Origin: Chloroflexota bacterium
Lineage (GTDB): Bacteria; Chloroflexota; Anaerolineae; Anaerolineales; UBA4823
Direction: 5' to 3'
Length of the DNA: 64,000 nucleotides
Assembly: GCA_032124675.1 (NCBI GenBank)
Contig: JAQBDA010000315.1
Location: forward strand, 7,800-71,799
The position numbers and the translations under genes are program-made. Under the pieces are notes generated by a model. It saw only the letters and a list, made by a program, of their open reading frames with translations, was not told the origin of the DNA and searched no databases. Position 1 is the first letter of the stretch; each line of letters opens with the position of its first letter. Below, piece by piece: positions 511 through 20,717 of this stretch.

Positions 511-1368
511 TTACCAGCCAGTATCCTTTTCGTATCCCAACTGGACCAGCAGCTCTCCAGCCACGTCTTTGAACAGCATCTTGTTCTCGGGATTGAAGGC
601 GGTCTTCCATCCCCCGGCTTTGCCGCTGCGGAAGGTGGGTGATCGCTGCGGGTCGATGCTCTCACCCAGGAGGCGCACTGCCTGGCCGCGCTCGAACGCG
701 GCCAGGAAGCCGCGGCTGGCGGCGTGATCGTAGATCGCCCCCAGAGCCTGCTCGCGGTCTGACAGGAAGTCTTCGAAGCGCAGGGTGAGCACCTCGGAGC
801 GTTCCAGCCAACCCAGGTAAGGTTCGAAACGCCGGCGGATGTCGGGGAATGGGATCTGCTCGCCCGGCAGGCCGAGGATGCTGGTGCGCAGGCGCTGGTC
901 GAAGTCCTTCAATTCCTGGGTGTAATAGGCATGGTGGATGTGGTTCGTCTCGATCTCGGTTACGTAATGGACGTGCGACACCACCACATCGCGCGGGTCG
1001 CGCAGGATAAAGTATACGGCCGCGGCAGGCTGGCAGAGAAATTCAGCCACCTCAGGCAATGCGTGCAGGTGTCCATAAGCGATATCCCCGGGGAGCAGGC
1101 GCTCAAGGTCGTTCAAAACCTGGGAGGGTGATCGCTGCCGGCCGGTAATCCCGTCGTATGTCACGACAGCCGGCAGACCGCTGTCCACAGCCGGACCCAG
1201 GCGTGTGAAGCCCTGCAAGACCTGGGTCAGCAAGTGGGTGCCGCTTTTCGGGAAGGAATTGGCGAACAGGACCGGTACGCCGGAGAGGGATATGCGGTGC
1301 CAGCGATACATTGCCTGCCAACGGCGCAGCCGGCGGCGGGCAAGGCGCGACTGAATATAAAGTGTCAT
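511..1368 (-). CDS. sulfotransferase family protein (PAPS-dependent)
   Basis: 285-aa ORF. 5'-phosphosulfate-binding loop FPKSGTHLL and 3'-phosphate-binding block LRDPRDVVVSH. Tandem paralog of 1377-2240 (shared RFEDF and TFRxGKxGxW blocks). Confidence 0.85.
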   Translation of the reverse strand: MTLYIQSRLARRRLRRWQAMYRWHRISLSGVPVLFANSFPKSGTHLLTQVLQGFTRLGPAVDSGLPAVVTYDGITGRQRSPSQVLNDLERLLPGDIAYGHLHALPEVAEFLCQPAAAVYFILRDPRDVVVSHVHYVTEIETNHIHHAYYTQELKDFDQRLRTSILGLPGEQIPFPDIRRRFEPYLGWLERSEVLTLRFEDFLSDREQALGAIYDHAASRGFLAAFERGQAVRLLGESIDPQRSPTFRSGKAGGWKTAFNPENKMLFKDVAGELLVQLGYEKDTGW

Positions 1369-1376
1369 TCTGAGGA

Positions 1377-2240
1377 CTACCAGTCGCTGCCTGTCTCGTA
1401 GCCTAATTTCAGCAGCAGGTCGCTGGTCTTCTCTTTGAACAGATCGATATTGCCCGGTGTGAAATGCTCACGCCAGTTGCCCGGTTTGCCTTTGCGGAAG
1501 GTGCCCGATTTCCGGGGTGAGACGGCTTTCTCCAGGGCATTGACTGCCTCCTGAGTCGGTATCCGGGGCGTGTGCCCGCGCTCTTCCAGGTAGCTCAAGA
1601 GACTACTTAGGGCAGCAGAGCGGTTCAGGATCAGATCCTCGAAGCGCAGGCAGAGCACTTCCGGCTGCTCCAGCCAGCCCAGGTAGCCCTCATAGCGGCG
1701 GCTGATGGGGGTCAGCTCGGAGCCGGGCTGCTCCACACCATTGATAGCAGCGTTGATGCGCGCTTCCATGCTGTCCAGCTCTTGAGTATAGTAGCGGTGC
1801 ATCCAGTGGCTTAGGTGCATTTCGGTGGCGTAAAAAATGTGTGAGACGATCATATCGCGCGGGTCACGGTAGACGAATATCGTCGCCTGTCCGGGTCCGG
1901 CAAGGGTCGATATGAATGGTTCGTTGGCGCTGATATAGCCGTAGCCGATATCCCCCGGCAGCATGCGTAGAATATTATCCAATACTGCCGCCTCCGGGAG
2001 CTTGCTGTTATCCTCGGCCCGGTTGACCGGGGGGAAGCCCGGGTTGACGAAAGGACCCACCCAGGTCAGCCCTTGAAGCACCTGGATGATCAGGTGCGAG
2101 CCGGATTTTGGCATGGCATTGCCCAACACGCTGGGTGTCGAGGATAGGCTGTCGGCACCCCACCGTGCGGCCGCGGCGGCTCGCCTCGCCCGCCAGCGGG
2201 CGAGCTTGAGGCTGTGTTTAATAATGTAGTAAACTTTCAT
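1377..2240 (-). CDS. sulfotransferase family protein (PAPS-dependent)
   Basis: 287-aa ORF. MPKSGSHLI (5'-PSB) and YRDPRDMIVSH (3'-PB) motifs. Paralog of 511-1368. ATGA overlap with the upstream gene at 2237-2240. Confidence 0.85.
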   Translation of the reverse strand: MKVYYIIKHSLKLARWRARRAAAAARWGADSLSSTPSVLGNAMPKSGSHLIIQVLQGLTWVGPFVNPGFPPVNRAEDNSKLPEAAVLDNILRMLPGDIGYGYISANEPFISTLAGPGQATIFVYRDPRDMIVSHIFYATEMHLSHWMHRYYTQELDSMEARINAAINGVEQPGSELTPISRRYEGYLGWLEQPEVLCLRFEDLILNRSAALSSLLSYLEERGHTPRIPTQEAVNALEKAVSPRKSGTFRKGKPGNWREHFTPGNIDLFKEKTSDLLLKLGYETGSDW

Positions 2241-3565
2241 AGATCATAGCTTAACCGCACCAGCTTTTTATCTGCCAGCTGGTTGACCACCTCCCAGGCG
2301 GATTGAAACGGGATCTCCAGCTCGGTAGCGATATCAGCAATGCTGCGCGTTCCATCGCAGTGGTCCATGATATCGAACAGGCGGCGGTGACCTGCCGGGT
2401 TGGTGCTGTGGTCGACCCAGATGCCGTACCCCGAGCAGAAGACCTCGCCCTTGAAATCGTTTACCGCGACCTGGTTCTTCTCCCAGGCATCGATCAGGCT
2501 CAAGACCAGGTCGCGCGAGACCTCCAGCCGCTCCTGGCTGACGATCTCCGGAGTATCCAGGCTGGAATGGTACTGCGGGTATGGCGGTCGCCCGGAGGCT
2601 TTGGGCGCCTCGACCCGCGAAAGCGACAGCATGGGCACGCGCACCCCGGGAGCATTGAACTGGCGTTCATCGTTATCGATGATGCCCCGGAACTCGCCCA
2701 GGTAGCTCTGCGGGTCGAGCTTGTGCAGGGCGCTTCGCAGGCAGCGGTCAGGCTGGCTCTCGGGCTGGAATGAACCCTGCAGAGCATGCGGCGAGTCGTT
2801 GCCCAGCATTTCTAGGAATAAGCCGCCAACCATCTTCGGGATTAAAGCCTCATTGTGGCTGAGATATGCCACCGAGCCGATCGTCTCGGGCAGGAATAAG
2901 ACCCGGTAGGTGTAATGGCGGGGCGGTCCGGCCAGCAGCGCCCGCGCCACTTCCACGCCTACCACCACGCCGGTCAGGTCATCGTTAGCCATCGCCGGGT
3001 GATCCAGGTGGGCGGCGAGCACGAAAGACTCGTCGGTCTCGCCAGGGACCACAACTTCAGCTACTTTCAGCGTGCCTGGCTCGAAGCGGGTGCGGATGAC
3101 AACCTGGTAGGCATTATCCTGCAGAGAATCTCGCAGCTGCTGGGTTGTGCACAACCCCCAGTCGCGGTCGTAATACTTGAATGCGAACGGGATGGCGTCC
3201 GGAAGGTTTGGGTGCACATGCAGGTGGCGAAGCAGCTCATCCCGGCTGACCAGGCCAACATATGGCAGCGAGTATGAGACCACATGCAGGGGATGGTCGG
3301 CGTAATCGATCAGCCTTTCCCCTTCGAGCGTCTCTAGGTAGGCTTCCCGGCAGCTCCATTTCTCGGGTATGTGCCAGGTCCAGCAATTTTCACCGGTCGG
3401 GTATTCGTGGATGGTCATCGGCACTTCATCAGCCAGCCGGGACAGCGACCGGTCGAAATCCTCCGAGACAAGGTCGCGTTTCAGGTACCAGAGTTCGTTG
3501 ATCAGGTCAAGCATGTCAGTCATAATAGATTGTCCTATGGATAGTAAGATGTTGGGGTGAAGCAT
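2237..3565 (-). CDS. DUF4910/DUF2172-type protein (M28 aminopeptidase-like fold with C-terminal winged helix)
   Basis: 442-aa ORF. M28-like metal-ligand-style block HLDHPAMANDDLTG. C-terminal wHTH-like tail (SIADIATELEIPFQSAWEVVNQLADKKLV). Family recalled from COG4310-type proteins found in polysaccharide clusters; not verified by search. Confidence 0.65.
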   Translation of the reverse strand: MLHPNILLSIGQSIMTDMLDLINELWYLKRDLVSEDFDRSLSRLADEVPMTIHEYPTGENCWTWHIPEKWSCREAYLETLEGERLIDYADHPLHVVSYSLPYVGLVSRDELLRHLHVHPNLPDAIPFAFKYYDRDWGLCTTQQLRDSLQDNAYQVVIRTRFEPGTLKVAEVVVPGETDESFVLAAHLDHPAMANDDLTGVVVGVEVARALLAGPPRHYTYRVLFLPETIGSVAYLSHNEALIPKMVGGLFLEMLGNDSPHALQGSFQPESQPDRCLRSALHKLDPQSYLGEFRGIIDNDERQFNAPGVRVPMLSLSRVEAPKASGRPPYPQYHSSLDTPEIVSQERLEVSRDLVLSLIDAWEKNQVAVNDFKGEVFCSGYGIWVDHSTNPAGHRRLFDIMDHCDGTRSIADIATELEIPFQSAWEVVNQLADKKLVRLSYDL

Positions 3566-3644
3566 TTACCGCTGCATTCCCATAAACCAGAAGCGGCGAT
3601 CAGGCAAATGCTTCGCCCGTACCGGGGACAGCTGCGTATGAACT

Positions 3645-4520
3645 TCACCCGTTGACCGGGCGGTTTGTAACCAGCGACCAGGGGTCGTCAGCCAGGAATT
3701 CGTCCACTGCGGCCATGAAATCGACCAGCCGGCAAAGGGCGACATGCCCATAATTCAGCTTCACACTGGACCACAGACCGCGCTCCTGGAGGACTTCCTG
3801 CACCGCGTACAGCTCGATTTTCGGGTCGATCTCCATGTCGCGCACGAACATGCGGTAGGTGCGCTCTTGCCATCCCCGGTCGGTCTTCACCTGCCCGGTG
3901 AAGTCTTTCCAATAGCGGTAAGGGACGGAGGCGCGCTGCTCGCAGTAATGCAGCATGGCGGTTGCCTGGATATCGGCGCCGAGCAGGAGCAGCTTGAAAT
4001 CCAGATCCAGCATGCGCTCGAAGGGCGAACCGGGGTCGAAGGCAGAATGCGTGTCACGCCGGGCAAGGTCAGCGGCGTGCTGCCCCACAGCTGCCAGGGA
4101 CTGCATCGGATGTGGGCTGCGCTGTGCGAACGGGAGCTGGCGTACGTACTCAGAAAAGACGCCCATGCCTGCTGATGGCGTGCTCTGCGGGTCGTAGGCC
4201 TCGCCGCGGGCGAAGGCGAAGTTGAAGGTAGGTACGGCGACTGTACCAGTTTGGAGAGGGGAGATAGGAGCGGCGATTTGCGAATTAGGCGTTGCGAATT
4301 GCGAGTCAGAAGCGGCGAGGGGCGTGTCAGGGGATGGCTCACCTTCCAGGACGGCGTGTAGAGCCCAGTAGTAGATGCCGATGCCCCCCACCGGCTGCCC
4401 CAGGAACTGGATGGCAGAATGCACCAGCAGGCCATCGCCCTGGCGGACCCCGGCTGACTTCAGCGCGGCAGCGATCTGGTTCTGCGTCACAGGCTGCATC
4501 AGGCTACCCGGCGCCTCCAT
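3645..4520 (-). CDS. AAC(3)/Antibiotic_NAT-like N-acyltransferase with a 30-aa low-complexity insertion
   Basis: 291-aa ORF. GDGLLVHSAIQFLG near the N-terminus and later AVPTFNF, DPGSPFERM and KLLLLG blocks resemble the aminoglycoside 3-N-acetyltransferase fold family. Insert EPSPDTPLAASDSQFATPNSQIAAPISPLQ maps to 4251-4340. Alternative start ATG 4499. Confidence 0.7.
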   Translation of the reverse strand: MEAPGSLMQPVTQNQIAAALKSAGVRQGDGLLVHSAIQFLGQPVGGIGIYYWALHAVLEGEPSPDTPLAASDSQFATPNSQIAAPISPLQTGTVAVPTFNFAFARGEAYDPQSTPSAGMGVFSEYVRQLPFAQRSPHPMQSLAAVGQHAADLARRDTHSAFDPGSPFERMLDLDFKLLLLGADIQATAMLHYCEQRASVPYRYWKDFTGQVKTDRGWQERTYRMFVRDMEIDPKIELYAVQEVLQERGLWSSVKLNYGHVALCRLVDFMAAVDEFLADDPWSLVTNRPVNG

Positions 4521-5019
4521 CTCCGTCAGGCTGCTCGTCTACGTACTCATCCCAAAGCAGGCGTCCCACGCGGAATTCAAGCTGGAAGCCCATCCGCTCA
4601 TACAGCTTCCAGCTGGCCTCGTTATCTTTGAGCACCTGGATCTCGATCGAGTGCGCCCCTTGCTGGCGCATCCAATCGATCGCCAGCCGGGAGAGCCGGT
4701 CGCCGATGCCCATACGCCGGGCGCTGGCATCGATCCACATATCGCTCAGCTCACCTACCATTACCCCACCCATATATGACGGCACGCGCTTCAGCCGGCA
4801 GAGCATGAAGCCGACCACACGGTCGTCGACCTCAGCGATGAAGACATTGCTGAAGCGACCCAGCGTGCGCTGGAATGAGTCAAGCCATACCTCACCCACA
4901 TTCTCCGGGTGCGGCAGGCGGTAGCCCATCGAGTAGAAATATGTGTTTAGGTTCTCGTAGAACTCCAGCAGGACCGGCAGGTCGGATTCGGCAACCGTGC
5001 GGTAGGAGACGCTGCTCAT
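4504..5019 (-). CDS. GNAT family N-acetyltransferase
   Basis: The track ORF (4504-5445) has an Arg/Pro-rich N-terminal 142 aa that overlaps the upstream gene in another frame. ATG 5019-5017 overlaps the upstream stop as ATGA. The 171-aa product MSSVSYRTVAESDLPVLLEF... has a GNAT core and an acetyl-CoA-loop-like RRMGIGDRL. Confidence 0.8.
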   Translation of the reverse strand: MSSVSYRTVAESDLPVLLEFYENLNTYFYSMGYRLPHPENVGEVWLDSFQRTLGRFSNVFIAEVDDRVVGFMLCRLKRVPSYMGGVMVGELSDMWIDASARRMGIGDRLSRLAIDWMRQQGAHSIEIQVLKDNEASWKLYERMGFQLEFRVGRLLWDEYVDEQPDGDGGAG

Positions 5020-6206
5020 CTCACTGCCTCCTGTACTGCGGGCGGCCATCCCCCGGGGTCCAGACCGTATTGTGCCAGGAACGCGTAAGCCATGCGCTCC
5101 AGCCCAAAAGCCACACAGCCGGTGTGGGCCGGCGACCCGTCCGGCAAGGTGATATCCAGATGGCGCCCGAAGAAGTTCTGGTGGTAGTTGTACGACCCGA
5201 CCGCCAGGGTGGAGTCCTTGAAAGGCAGGCGGGCGCGGATCTCGAACTTGAGCTGGAAGGCACTCTGGAAGACCGTCTGCTTGCGGAACTCGCCGATGAA
5301 GAAGGGATCGGTAGCGCTCTCCACCCGGTAAGCCAGACCGATCTCTTCGAACACCTGGCGCATGTGCTTGCGGGCGGCTTCCCGGTTGTCGAGCACGAAT
5401 TCCTTGGAGCCGACGAAGATCACTTCGCGCATGGTGAAATTCCACAAGCGCTCCAGAGAGGTCAGGTTGGTTGACTCATAACGGAAGCAGTTGCCAACCG
5501 CAGTGGCGGTGACCTGACCATCCGGGAGCGGTCTATCCGCCAGGGAGAAATATAGATGGTAGCAGACCGCCGGGGAGAGCAGCGCCTGGATGGGCGAGAA
5601 CGAGCCCTCCGGGGTGTTGAGCCCGTGCGCGTCACAGGCGGCGTGCTGAGCGAAGTGATCGATCACATCCAGGTCTTCGCGCAGGTGGGTGGCAAAGGTC
5701 AGCGAGTGCGGGAAGGCGCGGAAGTAGTTCACCCTTTCCAGATAACGGGCGGGGATCAGGGTCGGGAAGCGGTAGGGCTCGGCGCCAAACCTTCCTGCCA
5801 GGTCCAGAAAGCGACCTTCGAAGTATTCCATCACCCTGGTAAGGAGCGGGCCAAAGACGAAAATGCCCTGCGCCTCTTTGGATATCTGCCTGCTAGAGAG
5901 CAGTTCTGGATGCGGGTCGGTGTGGTATGGGACGGGGCGATCAAGGTAGTCTTCCAGCACCTGTATCTTGGGTTTCAAGGTCCCTTCAACCATCGTGGAG
6001 ACCACCCGCTGGACTTTGGCATCGATCTCCTCGCTTTGCTGCGCGGTAACCGGTTGGCTGAGAGCGAGGCTGATCAGGTCTCCTTCTGGAGAGACGCGGG
6101 CGCTGCGGATGCGCTCGTCGACGTAGGCCAGCTTGGACTGCACCTCACCGGTCAGGTAGCCGGGGATATCAATGGAAGGTCTGATATCGAGGCTGTTCTC
6201 AGGCAT
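5016..6206 (-). CDS. amino acid--[acyl-carrier-protein] ligase (class II aaRS catalytic-core homolog without a tRNA-binding domain)
   Basis: Class II synthetase motif 2 GNCFRYES and motif 3 GCVAFGLERMAYAF. About 396 aa with no recognisable anticodon/tRNA-binding domain. ATG 6206 is preceded by GAGGAG (the track start 6221 is TTG). Overlaps the stop of the adjacent carrier-protein gene by 8 nt. Confidence 0.75.
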   Translation of the reverse strand: MPENSLDIRPSIDIPGYLTGEVQSKLAYVDERIRSARVSPEGDLISLALSQPVTAQQSEEIDAKVQRVVSTMVEGTLKPKIQVLEDYLDRPVPYHTDPHPELLSSRQISKEAQGIFVFGPLLTRVMEYFEGRFLDLAGRFGAEPYRFPTLIPARYLERVNYFRAFPHSLTFATHLREDLDVIDHFAQHAACDAHGLNTPEGSFSPIQALLSPAVCYHLYFSLADRPLPDGQVTATAVGNCFRYESTNLTSLERLWNFTMREVIFVGSKEFVLDNREAARKHMRQVFEEIGLAYRVESATDPFFIGEFRKQTVFQSAFQLKFEIRARLPFKDSTLAVGSYNYHQNFFGRHLDITLPDGSPAHTGCVAFGLERMAYAFLAQYGLDPGGWPPAVQEAVR

Positions 6207-6450
6207 GACCGTTCTCCTCAATATAGCTGCAGATCGCCGGAATGCTGGTCAGCTGTTCGATGGTGTCCGTGTTGATATCGATGCCAAACTGCGCCTCCAG
6301 CGCCATCATCACTTCCATATGTCCCATCGAATCCCACTGCGGCAGGTCGCCGAACGCCAGCTCTGGGGCTATCTGCTCAGGGGATATTCGCAGAGCTTCG
6401 CTGAGCGCAGCCTGCACGCGGGCGGTCAGAACCTGGGTATTAACGCTCAT
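6199..6450 (-). CDS. acyl/aminoacyl carrier protein
   Basis: 83 aa, carrier-protein size and pattern with a phosphopantetheine Ser motif LPQWDSMGHMEVMMALE. Adjacent to and overlapping the aaRS-like ligase. Confidence 0.8.
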   Translation of the reverse strand: MSVNTQVLTARVQAALSEALRISPEQIAPELAFGDLPQWDSMGHMEVMMALEAQFGIDINTDTIEQLTSIPAICSYIEENGHA

Positions 6451-7355
6451 ATGTTTTCCTTATCATCTATTTGCTCATTGGATTTTATTTTACAGACGCC
6501 CACCGGCTGGTATTGGGGGGCCCATTTGCCCCACGGCATGCCGTTATCTCCAGACTGGCTGTAAAAAGAGGCCAGACCGTCGCGCAGCTCGGCACAATCG
6601 ACGAGCGCAGCGAACAGATCAGCATACCGGTCGTAGTTGGAGGGGGTGTCCGCGGGCAGCTTGAAACAGCGCCGCAGGCTCTGATCCGAATAGCACCAGC
6701 CATGGGATGGCTCATGGTACCAATCCTGGTCGGAGGCTGCACCGAGAGTAGCCAGCAGCAGGCCACCGGGTTTCAGCACGCGCAGCAGCTCATCTACCAC
6801 CAGCTCCAGGTCGTGGGGTGAGTTGTGTTCCAGGGCAGATACGGCGACGACCGCATCCAGTGAGCTGTCTGGGATATCGGTCAGCTTTTTTAAGTCCTGG
6901 TTGTAAACAACAACCTTGCCTAATGCCTGGTTCCCCTGCAGCGCGGCTGCCAGATCGCGCGCCTGGGAGGTGATTTTCGTCCTCAGTCTGCCGGGAGCGA
7001 GCATTCTCGCCTGGAGCATCTGACCGGTGGGCAGCAAGTCCTGCTCCCGCAACCCGCGGGTGCGGAATCTGCGCCGGAAGCGCAGCGGCAGATCGGCTCG
7101 GCTGGCGCGGTCCACACTGAGCACTTCTGCGCCATGCTCTGCCAGGTACCACTGCATCACGCCCGTCCCGGCACCGGCATCCATGATGCGCTTCCCGCCC
7201 GGCACCCCTAGCTGGCGGATGATCCAGGTCAGATCAAGCAGGTAGTGCCAGCCAAACTCAAGACTCAACGAGCGAGCGATCCGTTTCAGATCATCGACGG
7301 TTGGACGCTCTTCATCGAGCAGGGTGACCGGTAGGATTTCGATTTTATCTGGCAT
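6447..7355 (-). CDS. class I SAM-dependent methyltransferase
   Basis: 302 aa. Motif I IMDAGAGTGV followed by EVLSVD, and a post-II block ALEH. ATGA overlap with the ACP gene. Confidence 0.8.
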   Translation of the reverse strand: MPDKIEILPVTLLDEERPTVDDLKRIARSLSLEFGWHYLLDLTWIIRQLGVPGGKRIMDAGAGTGVMQWYLAEHGAEVLSVDRASRADLPLRFRRRFRTRGLREQDLLPTGQMLQARMLAPGRLRTKITSQARDLAAALQGNQALGKVVVYNQDLKKLTDIPDSSLDAVVAVSALEHNSPHDLELVVDELLRVLKPGGLLLATLGAASDQDWYHEPSHGWCYSDQSLRRCFKLPADTPSNYDRYADLFAALVDCAELRDGLASFYSQSGDNGMPWGKWAPQYQPVGVCKIKSNEQIDDKENI

Positions 7356-7381
7356 AGATTCTGGGGGTCAGCCTTGATCTC

Positions 7382-9058: not shown

Positions 9059-9091
9059 TGGGATGCGGATGGGGAGACCGTTTTATGCAAA

Positions 9092-10981: not shown

Positions 10982-11050
10982 GAGTACCTCCACAAGTGAA
11001 TTAAACGATAATGGAAAATCGAGCATCGAGAGTAATGGGTGAACGGTTCT

Positions 11051-11809
11051 CTATTCTCTATCATCGACTCTCTTAATCTCAAATCCCAACCCCTGAAAGG
11101 TGATCTCCCCGCTCTCCAGCAAACGTTCTGCGCGCCGCCAGTCATCAGGCGAGTCAATATCGATCCACTCGCTGGCCTCGATCTCCAGGGGCAGGATGCG
11201 CTCGCCGGTCATCGAGTTCTTCTCTAGAATGGTTTTCGACCAGGCTGCATCCACATAGCCCGTCTGCCAGTATACTTCCTGGAGAGCCTGGCGGGGCAGG
11301 TTGTAGGGCTCGGGATGTTCTATCTGGATCAGGGGGGTCATAAAGCCGTCGTTAGCGATCTGCCACATTTTGAACGGGTTCTGGAACGGCACGCACACCG
11401 TGCGTACGGCGTTCGCTTCAGGGCGATCAAGCAGCCTGTGCACTGCCTGGTCGATGTGCCGGACACGGCGTAAGGGCGAAGTCGGGCGCAGCTGGACGAT
11501 CATCTCGGGACGGTAGCCCTCGTTCTCCCTCAGCCAACGCAGGGCGTGCTGGAAGACCGGCAGGTCGGGGGTATCATCCTGCGAGAATTCTTCCGGGCGC
11601 ATGAAGGGCGTCTCTGCGCCGTACCGGCGGGAGATGGCAGCGATCTGCTCATCGTCAGTGGAGACGACCACCCGGTTGACCGTCTCGGCGGCTAAGCCGG
11701 CGGCGATGCTGTAAGCGATCAGCGGGTGCCCGGCGAAAGGGCGGATATTCTTGCGCGGGATGCTCTTAGAGCCACCGCGGGCGGGGATGATAGCCAGGAC
11801 TTCAGTCAT
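11051..11809 (-). CDS. acylneuraminate (CMP-NulO) cytidylyltransferase family protein
   Basis: 252 aa. N-terminal AIIPARGGSKSIPRKNI signature of the CTP_transf_3/NeuA family. Confidence 0.85.
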   Translation of the reverse strand: MTEVLAIIPARGGSKSIPRKNIRPFAGHPLIAYSIAAGLAAETVNRVVVSTDDEQIAAISRRYGAETPFMRPEEFSQDDTPDLPVFQHALRWLRENEGYRPEMIVQLRPTSPLRRVRHIDQAVHRLLDRPEANAVRTVCVPFQNPFKMWQIANDGFMTPLIQIEHPEPYNLPRQALQEVYWQTGYVDAAWSKTILEKNSMTGERILPLEIEASEWIDIDSPDDWRRAERLLESGEITFQGLGFEIKRVDDRE

Positions 11810-11860
11810 TAAGATTACCGGTTAGCCCAGCTATCAGGTGGCAACCTACCGGGTAGCCAG

Positions 11861-12679
11861 CTACCATGTTGTCCAGCCGCCGTCTACCACCAGGTTGGCA
11901 CCGGTCATGTACGCCGAGGCATCCGAGGCCAGGAAGAGCAGCGCACCGTTCATGTCGTCTTTGTAGGCCATGCGCCCCAATATCGCCTGGGCGGAGTAAG
12001 CGCGCACGAAATCCTGGTCGTGGTCGTTGAAGACACCGCCTGGGGAGAGAGCGTTGATGCGGATATTCTTCCCAGCGAAGTAGGCTGCCAGGTACTGGGT
12101 CAGCCCGATCACGCCGGCCTTGGTCACCGAATAGTAGACCGGCTTGTACTGCGGCGGCTGGCCCTCACGCTGGTACAGGCGCTGGTCGGGAGCGGTCAGC
12201 CCGTAGATGGATGAGAGATTGACCATCACCCCCCGGCCCTGATCCAGCATGGGGCGGGCGGCAGCCTGGCAGCACAGGAACATGCCGGTCAGGTTCACCC
12301 TCAACGCCTGTTCCCAGGCCTCCAGCGGGTAGTCTTCGAAAGAATTGGTATGCCCGCCGTGTTGGGGATCGAATTTCGGGTCCAGCACGGCGCTGTTGAC
12401 CAGGATATCCAGGCTGCCGAACTGGCTCAGGGCGGCGTCCACCATCTGCCCTACGGATTGCGAGTCTGCGACATCCGTGGGTAAGCTGATCGCCTGGTGC
12501 CCATCCTGGGAAAGCGTACCTGCTAGCGAAGCAGCTCGATCCGCATCGATGTCGGCGATCACGACCCGTGCCCCGGCCTGCGCCAGGGTGCGGCAGAACT
12601 CTGCCCCCAGCAGGCCGGCGCCGCCGGTGACCAGCGCTGTGCGATCGCTCAGGTCGAATAATTTTGGTAGATTGGACAT
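11861..12679 (-). CDS. SDR family oxidoreductase
   Basis: 272 aa. TGGAGLLG cofactor loop and catalytic YSVTK (YxxxK). Confidence 0.85.
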   Translation of the reverse strand: MSNLPKLFDLSDRTALVTGGAGLLGAEFCRTLAQAGARVVIADIDADRAASLAGTLSQDGHQAISLPTDVADSQSVGQMVDAALSQFGSLDILVNSAVLDPKFDPQHGGHTNSFEDYPLEAWEQALRVNLTGMFLCCQAAARPMLDQGRGVMVNLSSIYGLTAPDQRLYQREGQPPQYKPVYYSVTKAGVIGLTQYLAAYFAGKNIRINALSPGGVFNDHDQDFVRAYSAQAILGRMAYKDDMNGALLFLASDASAYMTGANLVVDGGWTTW

Positions 12680-12745
12680 AAGAGGGTGGAGAGGCTGGGT
12701 GGCAGCCAGGCACTCCCTACTGCCACCCAGTATGGTTGACGATGA

Positions 12746-14521
12746 TCAGGTTGTTACCGGGGATACCTGCTCCGCCGGTTCCTGTTCCGCATTGCCATTT
12801 CCGTCGGGCATCAAGAAACCGCGCTCTTCCAGATACTTCACAATGATGCGTGCGTTCTCATCGGGAGAAGTCTGCACGGTGTATAGGGTGATCTCCGGGT
12901 TCACCGGCTCTTCATACGGGTCATCCACCCCGGTGAAGCCGGTGATCTGACCGCGGCGGGCACGGGCGTAGAGGCCCTTCACATCACGCTGCTCGCACAC
13001 GTCGATGGGCGTATCCACATACACCTCGATGAAGCGTTCTTCGCCGACCATCTTGCGCGATTCGTTGCGCGTGGAGCGGTAGGGGCTGATGGCGGCGCAG
13101 ATAACTGCCCCGCCGTGGCGGGCGATCTCGCCAGCCACGAAGCCGATACGCAGGATATTGGTATCTCGGTCCTCTGGCGAAAACCCAAGACCTTTCGACA
13201 GGTGTGTGCGGACGACGTCGCCGTCCAGCACGGTAATTTGCTTGCCGCGCTCCAGCAGCAGCGAGGTGAGCACTTCGGCAGTGGTCGATTTTCCCGACCC
13301 GCTCAGACCGGTGAACCAGATGCAGAAGCCCTGTTTGTGGCGCGGCGGGTACATCTGCTGCAGGATGTCCGATGTCTCTCTGCGGGTGAACCACTCGGGC
13401 AGCGAGACGCCTTTGGCGAGGTATTCTTCGCGCACCTGGGTGCCGGAAATCTCGAAGACGCGGGCATCTTCAGGTACCTTGGTATGCTCCTCGTAGCGTT
13501 CGTCATCCGCCAGGTAGACGAGATTTTTGAACTCAAGGGGATGCACGCCTAGCTCTTCCCCATACTGAGACATCATCGCCTGCGCTTCATATGGACCGTA
13601 GAACGGACGACCCTGGCTGTCGCTGCCAGGACCCGCATGGTCGCGCCCGATGATGAAGTAATTGGCGCCATAATTGCGGCGGATGATTGCGTGCCAAAGG
13701 GCTTCTTTTGGTCCCGCCATGCGCATGGCAAGCGGCAGCAGGCTGAGCATGGTTTTGCTTGAATCGTAGTAGTTCTCTACCAGGGCGCGGTAGACACGCA
13801 CCCGGGTGTAATGGTCGACATCGCCGGGCTTGGTCATGCCGACGACCGGGTGGATGAGCAGGCTGCCCTTCACCTCTTCGGCGGCGCGCTTGGTGAGCTC
13901 TTCATGGATGCGGTGCATCGGGTTGCGGGTCTGGAAGGCGACCACATTGGCATTGCCCATGCCATCCAGAGCGCTGCGCACCTGAGCCGGTGTGCGGCGC
14001 AGCTCGATGAAATCGTTATACCTTGGCAGGTCGAGCACTTTCAGCTCTCCGGATACGTAAACCTTGCCCCAACGTCCCATCTCCGAGATCAGTGGGTGGC
14101 GGGAGTCGGTGGTGCCCAGGACCAGGCGCGCCTCCCGCTGCGGATCGTAGTGGTACACCTCTTCGATCTGCATCACGGCGATGGTGTTGTTGCGCGAGTC
14201 GCTGAGCGTGATTTGCTCACCCCAGGTGGGCAGGGCGTTCTCTTCGACCGGCAGCGTCACCGGGATGGGGAACAGGGTGCCGTCGTTGAGGCGCATTTCG
14301 GTCAGCACGCGCTCATAGTCAGCTTTCTTCATAAACCGGTCCAGCGGGGAAAACGCGCCGGTTGCCAGCAGCTCCAGGTCGCACATGGCACGTGCGGAGA
14401 TCTGGACCGAAGGCAGACGCCTGGATCGTTCCTGAAGCTCCTGGCGTTCATCGCCGCTGATCATCAAGTTGACCAATGGTCCTCCATACGGGCTGACCAG
14501 TTTTTTATTCGCTTTTGTCAT
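12746..14521 (-). CDS. sat/cysC: bifunctional sulfate adenylyltransferase / adenylylsulfate kinase (PAPS synthase)
   Basis: 591 aa. ATP-sulfurylase blocks QTRNPMHRIHEEL and GRDHAGPG. C-terminal APS-kinase P-loop FTGLSGSGKST. Confidence 0.9.
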   Translation of the reverse strand: MTKANKKLVSPYGGPLVNLMISGDERQELQERSRRLPSVQISARAMCDLELLATGAFSPLDRFMKKADYERVLTEMRLNDGTLFPIPVTLPVEENALPTWGEQITLSDSRNNTIAVMQIEEVYHYDPQREARLVLGTTDSRHPLISEMGRWGKVYVSGELKVLDLPRYNDFIELRRTPAQVRSALDGMGNANVVAFQTRNPMHRIHEELTKRAAEEVKGSLLIHPVVGMTKPGDVDHYTRVRVYRALVENYYDSSKTMLSLLPLAMRMAGPKEALWHAIIRRNYGANYFIIGRDHAGPGSDSQGRPFYGPYEAQAMMSQYGEELGVHPLEFKNLVYLADDERYEEHTKVPEDARVFEISGTQVREEYLAKGVSLPEWFTRRETSDILQQMYPPRHKQGFCIWFTGLSGSGKSTTAEVLTSLLLERGKQITVLDGDVVRTHLSKGLGFSPEDRDTNILRIGFVAGEIARHGGAVICAAISPYRSTRNESRKMVGEERFIEVYVDTPIDVCEQRDVKGLYARARRGQITGFTGVDDPYEEPVNPEITLYTVQTSPDENARIIVKYLEERGFLMPDGNGNAEQEPAEQVSPVTT

Positions 14522-14573
14522 ATTGCTGATACTCCTGATATTAGATTAGGGTTTTCGAATAATTGCAGCGCAG

Positions 14574-15446
14574 TTAATGATTGCGGCGCAGTTTGTTACG
14601 GGCTTTCATTTCGCTTTCGTATACTTTTTTCTCGCCATCGCCCATGGCGGTCTCGATCACGCGGATGTCGCGTATAAGACGCATCAACCCCCACGGTTCC
14701 ACCGAAGCTGCCTGGTCGCTGCCCCACATCGCCCGGTCCAGGGTGATGTGGCGCTCGATGAAGGCAGCCCCCAGGGTCACGGCGGCGTAGGTGGTCTGCA
14801 GACCGACCTCATGCCCTGAATAGCCAACCGGGCAGTTGAATTCAGCACCCAGGCTGTGGATCATGCGCAGGTTAAGCTCCTCCGGCGGGCAAGGGTAAGT
14901 GCTGGTGCTGTGGGCGATGAGCAGATTCTCGCGTTCGAGCTGACCCACCGCTGCCTTGATCTCATCCATGGTGGACATGCCGGTGGACAGGATTGCCGGT
15001 CTTGCAGTGCGGCGGATCCTCTCCAGCAAAGATGCGTCCGTCAGGCAGGCAGAGGCGATCTTGTAGCAGGGGGGCGAAAACTGCTCGATGAATTCCACCG
15101 AGTCTTCATCCCAGCAGGAGGCAAACCACTGGATGCCTTTCTCCCGGCAGTAGCGATCGATGGCGGCATACCCCTCCTGGCTGAATTCGACCTTGTGACG
15201 GTAATCCAGATAGCTCATCAACCCCCAGGGGGTTTCACGTATCACATTCTGGTATTCTGGGGGTACGGCTTTTATCGGGGTGCGTTTCTGGAATTTGACC
15301 GCATCACAGCCCGCCATCACTGCTACATCGATCAGCCGCCGGGCGATATTCAAATCCCCATTGTGGTTGATGCCGACCTCGGCAATGATAAAGGTCGGGT
15401 TTCCCTCGCCTACCCAGCGCTCTCCAATCTTAATGGCTGCTGCCAT
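14574..15446 (-). CDS. NeuB-family synthase lacking the SAF domain (candidate sugar-phosphate-using NulO-9-P/Kdn-9-P-type synthase)
   Basis: 290 aa. IIAEVGINHNGD, AVKFQKR and GYSGHEVG. Ends shortly after the TIM barrel, with no SAF/antifreeze-like tail. Confidence 0.8.
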   Translation of the reverse strand: MAAAIKIGERWVGEGNPTFIIAEVGINHNGDLNIARRLIDVAVMAGCDAVKFQKRTPIKAVPPEYQNVIRETPWGLMSYLDYRHKVEFSQEGYAAIDRYCREKGIQWFASCWDEDSVEFIEQFSPPCYKIASACLTDASLLERIRRTARPAILSTGMSTMDEIKAAVGQLERENLLIAHSTSTYPCPPEELNLRMIHSLGAEFNCPVGYSGHEVGLQTTYAAVTLGAAFIERHITLDRAMWGSDQAASVEPWGLMRLIRDIRVIETAMGDGEKKVYESEMKARNKLRRNH

Positions 15447-15488
15447 TCGTACTCCTTTTCAGTTTCATCATGCAGGATTGCCTGCCCT

Positions 15489-16664
15489 CTATCTGCCAGC
15501 CTGCATCTCGAGGATCAGCTCGCATATCTCGCGGATAGCCCCATCGCCGCCGCGGTGCTCCAGCACGATATCTGCAACCGCCATCACCTTGGGATAAGCA
15601 TCCGCCGGGGCGACGGCACAGCCCACGCGGGTCATGCAGGGCAGGTCATTGTCATCGTTGCCAACATACACCACAGAAACCGGGTCGATGCTGCGCTCTG
15701 CCAGCCAGGCTTCGAGTGCGGGCCATTTATCTTGAATGTCCTGCAGGCAGGGCAGATCGAGCTTGCCGGCACGGGCGGCGACCACCGGATTGGGTTCGGT
15801 GGAAAGCACCAGCATCGGCAGCCCGCTCTTTTTCAGACGACCGATCCCCCACCCATCGCTGCGGTCGCAGACTACTGCTTCACGCCCATCCTGGAATACG
15901 AGCACCTTGTTATCGGTGAACACGCCGTCGAAATCCAATACCAGAGCGCCGATCTCTTCCGGCAGGGCGCTGGTCTGACGCATGCGCCCCTGCTGGCTGA
16001 CCAGCGCTTCGGCGATGGTGAAATCTACCGGGTTGTCGATCTCCAGGCGGCGTTCGGCGGGCATCTGGTACAGGGCTGTCTTGCCGAAGAAGCGGTGCTG
16101 CGCCTGCAGGAAGCCGGGGACGCGCATTACATAAACCGCGCCGGTCTCCAGGTACTGCGCCTCGCGCTCCTGACGCAGTGGGCGCACAGTTTTGCTGTGG
16201 TTGAGTCCGATGGCATCGCCGGACGGGTCATTCTGCCAGAGAAAGTAATGAAATGGGATCACTGCCAGTCCACTGTCCGCTCCGGCATCCAGCAGCGCCT
16301 GGATGGTTCCGTCGATATCCTCAGCCTGGGTCAGCGGGGATGTGCATTGCAGGAATGCCAACAAGTCGGGCTGGTAGCCCTCGGTCAGGGATAGATACTC
16401 CAGGGCGTGCAGCAGGGCCGACTCGGACGAAGCGCTGTCTCCGCTGATATCTGCCGGGCGCCAGACGACTTCAGCCCCATATTGCTGGGAGATGGCACCG
16501 ATCTCGGTATCATCGGTCGAAACTACCACGCGATCCACCAGGCGAGCCCGCAGTGCCGCCTGGATGCTGTAAGCGACCAGCGGCACCCCTAATAGGGGCA
16601 GAATATTTTTGCGCGGGATGCCCTTAGACCCACCTCGGGCAGGGATAACGAGCACACATTTCAT
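15489..16664 (-). CDS. bifunctional CMP-NulO cytidylyltransferase / HAD-IIIA (KdsC-type) phosphatase
   Basis: N-terminal VIPARGGSKGIPRKNI (NeuA family). C-terminal VLDFDGVFTDNKV ... GNDDNDLPCM (DxD nucleophile and GDxxND of KdsC/YrbI-type phosphatases). ATG 16664 chosen; the track start 16676 is GTG in a GTGA overlap and remains possible. Confidence 0.8.
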   Translation of the reverse strand: MKCVLVIPARGGSKGIPRKNILPLLGVPLVAYSIQAALRARLVDRVVVSTDDTEIGAISQQYGAEVVWRPADISGDSASSESALLHALEYLSLTEGYQPDLLAFLQCTSPLTQAEDIDGTIQALLDAGADSGLAVIPFHYFLWQNDPSGDAIGLNHSKTVRPLRQEREAQYLETGAVYVMRVPGFLQAQHRFFGKTALYQMPAERRLEIDNPVDFTIAEALVSQQGRMRQTSALPEEIGALVLDFDGVFTDNKVLVFQDGREAVVCDRSDGWGIGRLKKSGLPMLVLSTEPNPVVAARAGKLDLPCLQDIQDKWPALEAWLAERSIDPVSVVYVGNDDNDLPCMTRVGCAVAPADAYPKVMAVADIVLEHRGGDGAIREICELILEMQAGR

Positions 16665-16672
16665 CTTATTGC

Positions 16673-17689
16673 TCACAAGTGAACCAATTTACCTTCCTGA
16701 GCGGAGCTCAGTGCTGCCAGCGACAGCCTCAACGCCTGGATGCCATCATCCAGCGAGCACAGCGGCTGCGCTTCTCCCCGGACCACCTGCAGGAAGTGTC
16801 TCATCTGCGATAGGAACAGCTGGTTGCGTTCGAAGCCTGCCGGGGTGGGATGTACCTCCCAGGCCGGTTCTGTTGAATCATCTGCCGCTGTCCGGGAATC
16901 CGGTGCCCGGAAGAGGCGTACCGTGCCATCAGAATTATCCCAGAGCAGGCTGCCGCGGGTCCCGGTAATCTCCAGGCGGTGGGCTGCCGGGCGCTGATTA
17001 TAATCCAGGTGCATGCTGCCCAAGGCACCATCGGCGAACTTAAGGCCGATCTCGGCGGTATCCTCCACATCCAGCGTCAGGTCGCCGCTGCTTCCGGTAA
17101 AAGCCCACACCGCCTCCACCTCTCCAACCAGCCAGCGCAGGTAATCCAGCGGGTGGGATAAGGTCAGCACCACGCCGCCACCCAGATCGCTGCGGGCGCT
17201 GTATCCCTGGCGGTAATCCTCCCAGGGGTGCCACCCGGGCAGGTATTCACCCCAATGGGCGCGCACCGATAGCACCCGCCCAATGGCACTCTCACCCAGC
17301 AGGGCAGCGATTTTTCTCAATCCCGGGTGGAAGCGGAACTGGTAGCCCACCAGCACCTGCCCGCCGCCGCGCTGCACCGCGGCTGCAAGCTCGCTGACCC
17401 GCTCCATGGAATGAGAGACCGGTTTCTCGATCAGCAGGTGGCAGCCGGCTTCGGCGGCAGGGATGGCTGCCTCCAGGTGCATGGCGGTCGGGTTCGAGAC
17501 AATGACTGCATCCGGCTTCCAGGCCAGGGCAGCCTGCGGGTCGGTCTCGACCGGGTAGCCCTCCAGCTCATCCTCAGGCAATGTGGAGCGGTGCGAGCGG
17601 TAGAGCAAGATGTTGCCCTCGCCCAGTGCAGTCAGGTTGCGCAGGTGGCGGCGTCCGATCGATCCCAGGCCGGCGATCAGGAATTTCAT
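16673..17689 (-). CDS. Gfo/Idh/MocA family oxidoreductase
   Basis: 338 aa. N-terminal Rossmann MKFLIAGLGSIGRRH and an EKP motif (LLIEKPV). Confidence 0.85.
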   Translation of the reverse strand: MKFLIAGLGSIGRRHLRNLTALGEGNILLYRSHRSTLPEDELEGYPVETDPQAALAWKPDAVIVSNPTAMHLEAAIPAAEAGCHLLIEKPVSHSMERVSELAAAVQRGGGQVLVGYQFRFHPGLRKIAALLGESAIGRVLSVRAHWGEYLPGWHPWEDYRQGYSARSDLGGGVVLTLSHPLDYLRWLVGEVEAVWAFTGSSGDLTLDVEDTAEIGLKFADGALGSMHLDYNQRPAAHRLEITGTRGSLLWDNSDGTVRLFRAPDSRTAADDSTEPAWEVHPTPAGFERNQLFLSQMRHFLQVVRGEAQPLCSLDDGIQALRLSLAALSSAQEGKLVHL

Positions 17690-17702
17690 CTCGCGCTGAC
17701 CC

Positions 17703-18755
17703 TCACCAACTCACGTCTTTCTCGTAGCCCCAGTCGACCAGGGTCTCCCCGGCTGCCTGTTTGAAGACCTGCCGGTCGTGATCGGTGAAAAGCTCCCGCC
17801 ATGTGCCGCGCTGGCCTTTGTTCAGCGAGCCGGCGATCTCGGCAGCTTTCTCCTGTTGCCAGTCGGCATCTGGATTCTGGCCCAGCTCTGCCTGCAGAGC
17901 GTCTTTCAATCCACCGTCCGAGACGTCCACACCAAGGAATGACCACAATTTGCACATCTCTTCCCAGGCGCGCGCCAGCAAGTCTTCGTAGCGTAGGTGG
18001 ATGTAGCGGTCTTCCAGGAGCTGGCGAGCGGCTCGATCTGTGTCTAGGATGTTATGGCTCCAGCCCTGGGCTGTCTGGCGCAGGCCTTTCTCGGTGAAGA
18101 TCGAGCGCTGACCGGTCAGGTAGGGGGATGGATTATCTGCAAAGCTCTGGCGGATGCGGTTGTCTTCGGGGGACAGGTGCTGCTGGCGGTCGATGAACGC
18201 CTGGAAGCGATGCGAGACAGCCGCATCACGCCCATCGCGCACGATGAAGATCAATTTTGCCTCGGGGAACACCTTGACCAGCTTGTGCACTGCATCGCCG
18301 TCCAGCAGGCTGTTCGGGCTTTTATCACCCACCACACAGCCCGGCCCGGACTTGCCCGCCGAACGGGCATCGCGCTCCATGATGAATTCCGCTGCTGCTC
18401 TCAGCACAAGCGGTGAGAGGTCACGACCCTGGTTCCAGCGGTTGCTGCGCCGGACCAGCCATGCGCCTGTGCTTTCATTGGCGACCAGCGATTCAAGCAG
18501 CGGAGGGCGGGTGAAGAAGTGCCCCTGGTAGTTGCAGTGCACCTGCGGGTGGACACGGATCAGCCGTGTGAGCAGCGTGGTCCCAGAGCGGGCATGACCG
18601 AAGATGAAGAACTTGTCCAGCGGGAAGAAGGCTTTGATCTCCTGCACTTCTTCAGGAGTGATGGGGGGTATCTCTCGGTAGTGCGTGTGTCTGACACTTC
18701 CTTTTCGAAATGCGGAAACTGCAAGTTTCAATCGCTGGATAAATGTATTAGACAT
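17703..18755 (-). CDS. sulfotransferase family protein (third, divergent copy)
   Basis: 350 aa. GHARSGTTLLTRL (5'-PSB) and VRDGRDAAVSH (3'-PB). Confidence 0.8.
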   Translation of the reverse strand: MSNTFIQRLKLAVSAFRKGSVRHTHYREIPPITPEEVQEIKAFFPLDKFFIFGHARSGTTLLTRLIRVHPQVHCNYQGHFFTRPPLLESLVANESTGAWLVRRSNRWNQGRDLSPLVLRAAAEFIMERDARSAGKSGPGCVVGDKSPNSLLDGDAVHKLVKVFPEAKLIFIVRDGRDAAVSHRFQAFIDRQQHLSPEDNRIRQSFADNPSPYLTGQRSIFTEKGLRQTAQGWSHNILDTDRAARQLLEDRYIHLRYEDLLARAWEEMCKLWSFLGVDVSDGGLKDALQAELGQNPDADWQQEKAAEIAGSLNKGQRGTWRELFTDHDRQVFKQAAGETLVDWGYEKDVSW

Positions 18756-18787: not shown

Positions 18788-19180
18788 TTATATAACAATT
18801 CGCTTGATACCGTTCTTAATCAATGGTACATTGAAATTGATTAAGTATCCCAGCCGTTTATTCATTAGCTTCAAATAGGTAATGAGCTGGGCGGTGTACA
18901 GGGGGTTTCCCCCTTCAACTGCCTTTAGCTCGCATACAATCAGATCTTCATCAAGTACATCAACCCGAAAACCCTGATCAAACCGTAACCCGTCATAGAG
19001 AATTGGAATAGCGGCCTGTTTCTGGAACGATAGATCGTGTTTATGAAGTTCATGACAAAAACAGATTTCGTAGATGCTTTCGAGGAGTCCCGGTCCAAGA
19101 TTGTGATGCACAGCGAAGGCAGCATCCACAATCTGTTTCCCAATCCGATCTTCTTCTAAAGAAACCTTAGCAAAACTCAT
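18788..19180 (-). CDS. GxxExxY protein (PD-(D/E)xK-like small protein family)
   Basis: 130 aa. Eponymous GLLESIY motif, DVLDEDLIVCELKA core and a C-terminal GYLINFN...GIKRIV tail. Visibly lower GC than its neighbours. Confidence 0.85.
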   Translation of the reverse strand: MSFAKVSLEEDRIGKQIVDAAFAVHHNLGPGLLESIYEICFCHELHKHDLSFQKQAAIPILYDGLRFDQGFRVDVLDEDLIVCELKAVEGGNPLYTAQLITYLKLMNKRLGYLINFNVPLIKNGIKRIVI

Positions 19181-20642: not shown

Positions 20643-20717
20643 GTTCAGGACACGGATTTAACAGATATAGCGGATTCTTTAGACAATACGATCAGGCAAC
20701 CCATGAGGGCAAGCATG

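Follow-up and report, generated by a model that had tools for sequence, protein, structure and literature searches.

The supply of 3'-phosphoadenosine 5'-phosphosulfate (PAPS) by dedicated enzymes to sulfotransferases acting on surface or secreted molecules is known from rhizobia, in which NodPQ, NodH and NoeE participate in the sulfation of Nod factors, LpsS in that of the lipopolysaccharide (LPS) of S. meliloti and KpsS in that of the K-antigen of M. loti. Other sulfated products of this kind include the sulfolipids of mycobacteria and the synechan of cyanobacteria. The capsule gene cluster of Cobetia marina KMM 1449 contains cysNC, cysD, cysQ, a sulfate permease gene, sulfotransferase genes and kpsETMD, and the corresponding polysaccharide is sulfated (PMC11766843). 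The presence of PAPS genes and sulfotransferase genes in one polysaccharide cluster is an established design (e.g., Cobetia, rhizobia, cyanobacteria). Here we analyze a 64-kb stretch of DNA from an uncultured Anaerolineae-type member of the Chloroflexota (contig JAQBDA010000315.1; the whole stretch is referred to below as the window), in which a bifunctional ATP sulfurylase/adenylylsulfate (APS) kinase (PAPS synthase) and three PAPS-type sulfotransferases (ST1, ST2 and ST3) are encoded among genes for a predicted glycopolymer containing nonulosonic acids (NulOs, sialic-acid-like sugars). We consider it likely that the product of this cluster is sulfated with PAPS made by the cluster's own synthase. 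The pairing of the known design with NulO modules in Chloroflexota looks new; we found in the literature no description of bacterial sulfotransferases linked to NulO genes, nor of this Anaerolineae cluster.

Like the Cobetia cluster (PMC11766843), the window combines PAPS genes and sulfotransferase genes in an ABC-transporter-dependent polysaccharide cluster with KpsS/KpsC-type genes. The two systems differ, however, in several respects. The Cobetia product is chemically proven to be sulfated, whereas a sulfated product of the window is predicted from its genes. Cobetia possesses CysNC/CysD together with CysQ and a sulfate permease, whereas the window encodes a fused Sat-CysC without cysQ or a permease gene. 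Furthermore, Cobetia is a Gram-negative gammaproteobacterium, and its polysaccharides contain rhamnose and mannose (Kdo, 3-deoxy-D-manno-octulosonic acid, in related strains) rather than NeuB-type NulOs. The rhizobial systems share with the window the dedicated PAPS synthesis feeding carbohydrate sulfotransferases for surface or secreted glycans, and ST3 has a weak match to NoeE. Nevertheless, this match reaches only 23.8 bits (NCBIfam cutoff 500), and enzyme architecture, host phylum and glycan type are all different.

The PAPS synthase (591 aa; for coordinates of all features see Table 1) possesses the Pfam domains PUA_2, ATP-sulfurylase (265 bits) and APS_kinase (214 bits) and passes the NCBIfam model NF004040 ([quoted passage not shown]) with 847 bits (cutoff 669). 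The best solved structure is that of the Aquifex aeolicus enzyme (2gks; 748 bits, residues 31-570 aligned), which shares the fusion of ATP sulfurylase with APS kinase and the conserved active-site motifs; the Aquifex crystal construct is without the first ~30 residues of the window protein. The motifs of both domains are intact, i.e. QTRNPMHRIH (aa 197) and GRDHAGPG (aa 292) of the sulfurylase and GLSGSGKST (aa 405), DGDVVR (aa 433) and ISPY (aa 478) of the kinase. A previous inspection of this DNA from its letters alone (the sequence-only reading) had identified a fused enzyme here, along with three PAPS-type sulfotransferases carrying 5'-phosphosulfate-binding (5'-PSB) and 3'-phosphate-binding (3'-PB) motifs, two of them in tandem at 511-2240 and a divergent one further away, all interleaved with NulO genes on the same strand. 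Our analysis confirmed the enzyme, its quoted motifs, the coordinates of the three genes and their setting: the sulfation genes are dispersed among three NeuB genes and four genes of the CTP_transf_3 cytidylyltransferase type (one of these a fusion with a HAD phosphatase), all on the minus strand.

ST1 and ST2 are paralogues (42% identity), and ST3 is ~25% identical to either of them. Family profiles, proposed as a check by the sequence-only reading, place all three proteins above the curated Pfam cutoffs for Sulfotransfer_1/Sulfotransfer_3 (22 bits for the ST1 and ST2 comparisons, 27 bits for ST3). The 5'-PSB motif has the form PKSGTH in ST1, PKSGSH in ST2 and ARSGTT in ST3. The 3'-PB motif (RDPRDVVVSH, RDPRDMIVSH and RDGRDAAVSH, respectively) follows the common form RDxRDxxVS, and the C-terminal motif (RSGKAGGW, RKGKPGNW and NKGQRGTW) the form (R/N)xGxxGxW. 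The 5'-PSB and 3'-PB motifs align to those of TPST2 and SULT2A1. Missing PAPS-binding residues had been named as something that would speak against sulfation; the residues are, in fact, kept. K45, S46, G47, R125, S133, R249 and G251 are invariant in an alignment of the ST2 family (22 sequences, 21 of ST2 type plus ST1), and so are R56, S57, G58, T59, T60, R173 and S181 in the ST3 family (20 sequences). Both families are large, with 2159 clusters for ST2 and 4079 for ST3 at E<=1e-5; the best 120 matches are all at least 67% (ST2) or at least 62% (ST3) identical, and the few named ST2-family matches are metagenome-assembled genomes (MAGs) of Chloroflexota. AlphaFold2 models of ST2 and ST3 (mean confidence, pLDDT, of 90.8 and 79.3) match sulfotransferases with bound PAP (3'-phosphoadenosine 5'-phosphate) or PAPS with a Foldseek probability of 1.00 and TM-scores of 0.5-0.64. 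With their intact PAPS-binding motifs, all three sulfotransferases appear to be cofactor-competent. The low Pfam scores of ST1 and ST2 (35-40 bits) could be taken as a sign that the sulfotransferase genes have decayed or are left as non-catalytic relics, with no sulfation taking place; given the high conservation of the families, the invariance of all cofactor-binding residues and the confident ST2 model, we regard this as very improbable.

Relatives of the locus were collected in a scan centred on ST2, with one genome per species (relatives in 144 species, 80 loci kept). All 80 loci are Chloroflexota as labelled, mostly Anaerolineales, Anaerolineaceae, Anaerolineae or Anaerolinea; the remaining ones carry just the label Chloroflexota or uncultured Chloroflexia or, in one case, "uncultured bacterium". 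The nearest ST2 relative (97% identity) is found on ERZ25039600 contig_30715. Synteny was analyzed by tblastn of the window proteins against these loci, and all counts refer to informative loci only. The recurring gene order is PAPS synthase, short-chain dehydrogenase/reductase (SDR), CMP-sugar cytidylyltransferase (CMP-transferase), NeuB-SAF-AP_endonuc_2 fusion, the KpsS/KpsC-like protein CapsSyn1, the methyltransferase MT1, an optional aminoacylation block, ST2, usually ST1, and a GT2 glycosyltransferase. CapsSyn1 is located upstream of ST2 in 48 of 49 loci and NeuB in 40 of 44. The aminoacylation block lies directly upstream of ST2 in 50/62 loci and is absent in the rest, and a second ST1/2-type gene follows downstream of ST2 in 52/64. 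The PAPS synthase gene is found upstream of the SDR gene in 7/7 loci, and the SDR gene is directly downstream of it in every ST2- or ST3-centred relative showing that flank.

The ST3 side of the cluster is conserved as well. Three long ST3-centred contigs (L083-L085) repeat the window order from GT4 through ST3, the GFO/IDH/MocA oxidoreductase (GFO), the CMP-transferase/HAD fusion, NeuB2 and the PAPS synthase to CapsSyn1. ST3 and GFO keep this order in relatives; in some of these (L061, L062, L066, L102) NeuB2 and the CMP-transferase/HAD gene are absent, and GFO then abuts the PAPS synthase gene. The latter separates the ST3/GFO module from the SDR/CMP-transferase/NeuB/CapsSyn/MT/ST2 module in 7/7 genome loci and in 3/3 ST3-centred contigs. 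This arrangement is a conserved trait across Anaerolineae-type Chloroflexota and not a one-off. As to the proposal of up to three distinct sulfation sites on the product, three is to be taken as an upper bound, since ST1 is a lineage-variable duplicate, its copy being absent in 12/64 relatives.

A second scan used the PAPS synthase alone as a query against JGI metagenome contigs, and the 80 closest loci (67-99% identity) were kept; the nearest relative, on Ga0210366_10007871, is 99% identical. An exact look-up with the sequence of the window's PAPS synthase gave no match. Counted over loci with enough flank, an SDR or CMP-transferase gene follows downstream of the PAPS synthase gene in 38/48 loci, a GFO, ST3 or NeuB2 gene precedes it upstream in 34/49, and a homologue of ST1, ST2 or ST3 is within reach in 31/43. 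Because the same neighbours recur in a scan that did not start from a sulfotransferase, the PAPS synthase is a conserved part of the cluster. As a rule, this PAPS synthase clade is thus a component of sulfotransferase-bearing glycan clusters. The conserved linkage is the strongest available argument for a dedicated PAPS supply and also argues for a sulfated glycan; it lends support, at the level of a genomic prediction, to what the sequence-only reading had proposed on both points. In more distant relatives (PAPS synthase ~69% identical; L151), a compact form of the order, with SDR, CMP-transferase plus HAD, NeuB, sulfotransferase and CapsSyn, is kept, the sulfotransferase gene standing directly between those for NeuB and CapsSyn. 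L151 additionally carries a gene for a PMT-type GT-C protein between the PAPS synthase and SDR genes, and its ST3 homologue is separated from GFO by a gene of the sulfatase family at 2931-4451 (Sulfatase plus SGSH_C).

Not all relatives of the PAPS synthase conform to this picture. About one fifth to one third of them are found in other contexts, which weighs against a dedicated role. Six of the 14 loci without the canonical neighbours were inspected. In two of these (L125, L140), a different sulfotransferase gene stands immediately after the PAPS synthase gene; L117 has a UDP-glucose dehydrogenase gene beside it, L122 an Acyl_transf_3 gene next to it and Wzm/Wzt further downstream, and L127 a GHMP sugar kinase gene at the locus. 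In L137, genes for an ABC importer (permease and ATPase) are located immediately upstream, an arrangement that would fit sulfate uptake. Such a locus would agree with an alternative in which the enzyme serves housekeeping sulfate activation for cysteine and methionine synthesis and lies in the cluster by chance, the sulfotransferases drawing on the general PAPS pool. A single sat/cysC is present in the window (a tblastn search of the 64 kb gave neither another sulfotransferase nor another sat/cysC copy), and the closest enzyme, that of Aquifex, has no known link to sulfotransferases or glycans; both facts agree with such a role. Nevertheless, we consider it unlikely. The position between sulfotransferase-bearing modules is kept down to ~68% identity, and the exceptional loci often still possess an adjacent sulfotransferase gene. 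No cysH, sulfite reductase or other sulfate-assimilation genes were found among the window open reading frames (ORFs) scanned, including those from 45 kb onward. Furthermore, sulfation depends on an intact APS kinase domain such as this one; for the assimilation of sulfate, by contrast, many bacteria start from APS and need no such domain. We therefore infer that the PAPS synthase is probably dedicated to the sulfotransferases of the cluster; these would act on the glycan.

The latter point requires a closer look, as gene context suggests a glycan acceptor for ST1-ST3, and homology leaves the acceptor class undefined. Several observations weigh against the proposed sulfation of the glycan. Carbohydrate sulfotransferases (NodH/NoeE/LpsS-like or heparan-type) are not the closest characterized relatives of ST2 or ST3. 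The nearest folds of ST2 are cytosolic small-molecule sulfotransferases (SULTs) with bound PAP or PAPS (TM-score ~0.55), and both the nearest solved structures and the nearest folds of ST3 are tyrosylprotein sulfotransferases (TPSTs; TM-score 0.5-0.64). ST1 and ST2 match no NCBIfam model, and ST3 only has the weak match to NoeE mentioned above. In one relative, the complete MAG chromosome CP070785.1 (L069), ST2 is accompanied by CapsSyn and a methyltransferase, but NeuB and PAPS synthase genes are not located within 10 kb; the minimal module there consists of a stand-alone AP_endonuc_2 gene (6751-7425), CapsSyn, methyltransferase, ST2, GT2 and NTP-transferase genes. Finally, sulfate in any Anaerolineae polymer is here predicted from genes.

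From these data one could propose that the sulfotransferases use non-glycan acceptors, i.e. that ST3, in the manner of RaxST and the TPSTs, sulfates protein tyrosines (e.g., in an S-layer or secreted protein) and ST1/ST2 a small molecule or lipid, and that the glycan genes are mere neighbours or modify the same protein. The MptE-like and PMT_2 genes carried by relatives could indeed serve protein glycosylation. However, fold similarity does not fix the acceptor, because the TM-scores are only about 0.5-0.6, and the bacterial carbohydrate sulfotransferases NodH and NoeE belong to the same Pfam families. Moreover, the genes of both sulfotransferase families belong to glycan sub-modules in which the gene boundaries are tight and often overlap; ST2 adjoins CapsSyn1 and MT1 in nearly every relative, and distant relatives place the sulfotransferase directly between NeuB and CapsSyn. 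Non-glycan acceptors are therefore rather unlikely in our view, and the glycan appears to be the better candidate.

Table 1. Features of the predicted glycopolymer gene cluster in the window, with the basis of each assignment.
Feature	Coordinates	Strand	Basis and remarks
GT2 glycosyltransferase, truncated	1-509	-	Glycos_transf_2, 81 bits
ST1, PAPS-type sulfotransferase, variable paralogue of ST2	511-1368	-	Sulfotransfer_1 34.7 bits, Sulfotransfer_3 27.8 bits
ST2, PAPS-type sulfotransferase conserved in core module	1377-2240	-	Sulfotransfer_1 40.4 bits
Predicted N-aminoacylation block, optional, between MT1 and ST2	2237-6450	-	Pfam, NCBIfam
DUF4910/DUF2172/M28-like protein	2237-3565	-	aminoacylation block
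AAC(3)-like N-acyltransferase	3645-4520	-	aminoacylation block
GNAT	4504-5019	-	aminoacylation block
Amino acid:carrier-protein ligase-like, SerRS-related	5016-6221	-	aminoacylation block; NF005479 169 bits, below its cutoff
Carrier protein	6199-6450	-	aminoacylation block
MT1, S-adenosylmethionine (SAM) methyltransferase	6447-7355	-	Methyltransf_11 and Methyltransf_25; usual neighbour of CapsSyn1/ST2 in relatives
CapsSyn1, KpsS/KpsC-like glycosyltransferase, candidate ulosonic-acid transferase	7382-9058	-	PF05159, 29 bits
NulO module 1: NeuB-SAF-AP_endonuc_2 fusion (9092-11026), CMP-sugar cytidylyltransferase (11051-11809)	9092-11809	-	Pfam
SDR oxidoreductase	11861-12679	-	adh_short_C2, 171 bits
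PAPS synthase (bifunctional ATP sulfurylase/APS kinase)	12746-14521	-	Pfam, NCBIfam, structure match, motifs
NulO module 2: NeuB2 without SAF (14574-15446), CMP-transferase/KdsC-like HAD phosphatase fusion (15489-16676), GFO/IDH/MocA oxidoreductase (16673-17689)	14574-17689	-	Pfam, NCBIfam
ST3, divergent PAPS-type sulfotransferase, Sulfotransfer_3 type	17703-18755	-	Sulfotransfer_3 89.8 bits, Sulfotransfer_1 54 bits
Conserved assembly genes	19215-28952	-	Pfam; same order in L083-L085 at 47-89% identity
NulO module 3: NeuB3 with SAF (29430-30500), RmlD-like reductase (30519-31517), PseB/FlaA1-like dehydratase (31514-32686), MT4 (32524-33402)	29430-33402	-	Pfam, NCBIfam
Export: CapsSyn2 (33399-35015), Wzt ATPase with Wzt_C (35005-36321), Wzm permease (36359-37213)	33399-37213	-	Pfam

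The window starts inside the cluster. The first gene is truncated by the window start, so that the cluster extends past coordinate 1; within the window it reaches at least 37213. Every substantial gene from 1 to 44620 is located on the minus strand, and from 1 to 20642 neighbouring genes, all on this one strand, overlap or are separated by gaps of at most 79 nt. The layout is operon-like, and the PAPS synthase and sulfotransferase genes are probably co-transcribed with genes for glycan synthesis and export. Most of a >45 kb cluster for a predicted cell-envelope glycopolymer is present in the window. The cluster also encodes two Capsule_synth (KpsS/KpsC-like) proteins, at least four methyltransferases, and GT2 and GT4 glycosyltransferases. 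CapsSyn1 shows a weak match to the BFO_1060 family of glycosyltransferases (NCBIfam). The conserved assembly genes comprise those for a weakly TagF-like protein (19215-20642), MT2, two GT2 proteins, a 301-aa protein without assignment, MT3, a DUF6798 membrane protein, a third CMP-transferase and a GT4 protein. From 45 kb onward, ordinary housekeeping genes follow (e.g., urocanase, UDP-glucose dehydrogenase, UbiE/UbiX-like genes). We found neither tRNA genes nor a composition anomaly that would mark the cluster as an island in the window, whose base composition is even, and an interpretation as a recently acquired island was therefore dropped.

A gene of the PD-(D/E)XK_3 nuclease family is present at 18788-19180 (-), between the TagF-like gene and ST3. 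Of the ST3-centred contigs, the closest one, L083, has a homologue at the corresponding position (74% identity, tblastn), whereas L084 and L085 have none there. The gene thus looks like an accessory element inserted into a gene order that is fixed otherwise. Two long ORFs, 40513-42513 (-, 666 aa) and 47801-50074 (-, 757 aa), are without Pfam match. The former is flanked by a gene for a PMT_2 GT-C protein on one side and an LPG_synthase_TM/GT2 pair on the other, at the margin of the glycan region. Beyond the part covered by the window, the relatives L001 and L002 continue with genes for CTP_transf_3, 2-Hacid_dh, SDR, an MptE-like (Maf-type) protein, PMT_2 GT-C proteins, GT2 and another Sulfotransfer_3 protein (L001, 20402-20864; L002, 18735-19475). 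The full cluster may therefore contain four sulfotransferases and a fourth cytidylyltransferase module.

The three NeuB genes (Pfam scores of 244-281 bits) and the four CTP_transf_3 genes represent a set of NulO synthases and CMP-transferases. All three NeuB proteins are below the NCBIfam equivalog cutoffs for NeuB_NnaB and PseI (module 1 NeuB: 348 bits with a NeuB cutoff of 399.65, and 243 bits with a PseI cutoff of 340.25), so that none of them is assigned to N-acetylneuraminic, pseudaminic or legionaminic acid. The NeuB-SAF-AP_endonuc_2 fusion, with its xylose-isomerase-like TIM barrel domain, is kept in relatives at ~78% median identity; the AP_endonuc_2 domain is weakly similar to phosphodiesterases such as CbiR and endonuclease IV. 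NulO module 3 contains the PseB/FlaA1-like dehydratase and the RmlD-like reductase, and no DegT-type aminotransferase was found among the window ORFs scanned; this points to an unusual nonulosonic acid, for instance of 9-deoxy or mono-amino type, as the product of this module. The block between MT1 and ST2 is predicted to place an aminoacyl substituent on an amino sugar.

The export genes score 72.6 bits for ABC2_membrane, 72.7 bits for ABC_tran and 33.6 bits for Wzt_C (cutoff 30.4). The gene for Wzt with its Wzt_C domain is followed by those for the second KpsS-like protein and a methyltransferase, with overlapping boundaries. Wzm/Wzt export of O-polysaccharides is terminator-dependent in systems with WbdD (E. 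coli O8/O9a) or WbbB (Klebsiella O12/Raoultella). The window resembles these systems in the Wzt_C domain and in encoding potential chain-capping enzymes, namely methyltransferases and KpsS-like ulosonic-acid transferases. As the layout of 33399-37213 resembles terminator-controlled O-polysaccharide export, the export signal may by analogy be a chain end capped with methyl, ulosonic acid or sulfate; that a sulfate or methyl group is the cap is speculation. Unlike the hosts of WbdD and WbbB, the Chloroflexota are generally held to be without LPS and outer membrane, and an LPS O-antigen was rejected as the product for this reason. Glycosylation of flagellin or pilin, a common role of NulO clusters, was rejected as well: neither flagellin nor Maf genes are present in the window, and Wzm/Wzt and the many glycosyltransferases favour a polymer, although an MptE-like gene does follow in relatives.

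We propose that the glycopolymer, predicted to contain one or more nonulosonic acids, is assembled in the cytoplasm and exported by the Wzm/Wzt ABC transporter. The bifunctional PAPS synthase would convert sulfate and ATP to PAPS. ST1-ST3 are without transmembrane segments, and their N-terminal 30 residues, modelled as helices, have a net charge of +8, +7 and +5, respectively. These soluble proteins with strongly basic N-termini would work in the cytoplasm, probably at the inner membrane surface, and sulfate either the growing polymer or free or CMP-activated sugar precursors before export. A cytoplasmic location is suggested because the cytoplasm is the site where ABC-transporter-dependent glycans are assembled on a lipid carrier and where PAPS can be drawn on. 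ST2 (and ST1, if encoded) belongs to a module with the NeuB synthase, CMP-transferase, KpsS-like transferase and methyltransferase, and ST2 would be functionally tied to CapsSyn1 and MT1. ST3 belongs to a second module, which comprises the GFO oxidoreductase, to which ST3 would be tied, and in this lineage also the second NeuB and CMP-transferase/phosphatase.

Since all three sulfotransferase genes lie within NulO sub-modules, the simplest reading seems to be that sulfate is placed on a nonulosonic acid or beside it. That the sulfate is located on the nonulosonic acid itself is possible, though we would not call it probable. The absence of described bacterial cases of sulfation on or beside nonulosonic acids, asserted by the sequence-only reading, agrees with the literature, in which Halorubrum and Cobetia (PMC11766843) are the near-precedents. 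In the S-layer N-glycan of Halorubrum sp. PV6, a sulfated or phosphorylated hexuronic acid is found directly beside 5-N-formyl-legionaminic acid (PMC6137143). This is, however, an archaeal N-linked pentasaccharide, for which the choice between sulfate and phosphate was left unsettled and PAPS or sulfotransferase genes were not described in that paper. O-sulfated sialic acids occur in vertebrates and echinoderms, with WSCD1/2 as sialate sulfotransferases (PMC9304399). These systems unite a nonulosonic acid and PAPS-dependent sulfation, the chemistry that the cluster might perform, but WSCD1/2 are eukaryotic Golgi enzymes, and NulO sulfation by the window cluster is a hypothesis.

In a tentative extension, which we consider doubtful, the cluster would produce a conserved wall-associated polyanion of Anaerolineae whose nonulosonic acid is itself O-sulfated and O-methylated, the first bacterial sulfated sialic-acid-like sugar. 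If this is true, the polymer would be a prokaryotic counterpart of the 8-O- and 9-O-sulfated sialic acids of animals and, in a phylum held to have no LPS, would functionally take the place of teichoic acids. [quoted passage not shown]

The cell-envelope chemistry of Chloroflexota is largely unknown, and Anaerolineae, abundant filament-formers in sediments, soils and wastewater granules, have few cultured members. A cluster found in >140 species that unites PAPS synthesis with three sulfotransferases, with several methyltransferases and with as many as three NulO modules predicts a specific, testable surface polymer for them. Granular-sludge EPS contain both NulOs and sulfated glycoconjugates, and the responsible sulfotransferase genes were not identifiable with known references (PMC10483923). 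The ST2 and ST3 families are concrete candidates for these sulfotransferases and usable metagenomic markers. If sulfate is indeed on the nonulosonic acid, sulfated sialic-acid chemistry would be extended from animals to bacteria.

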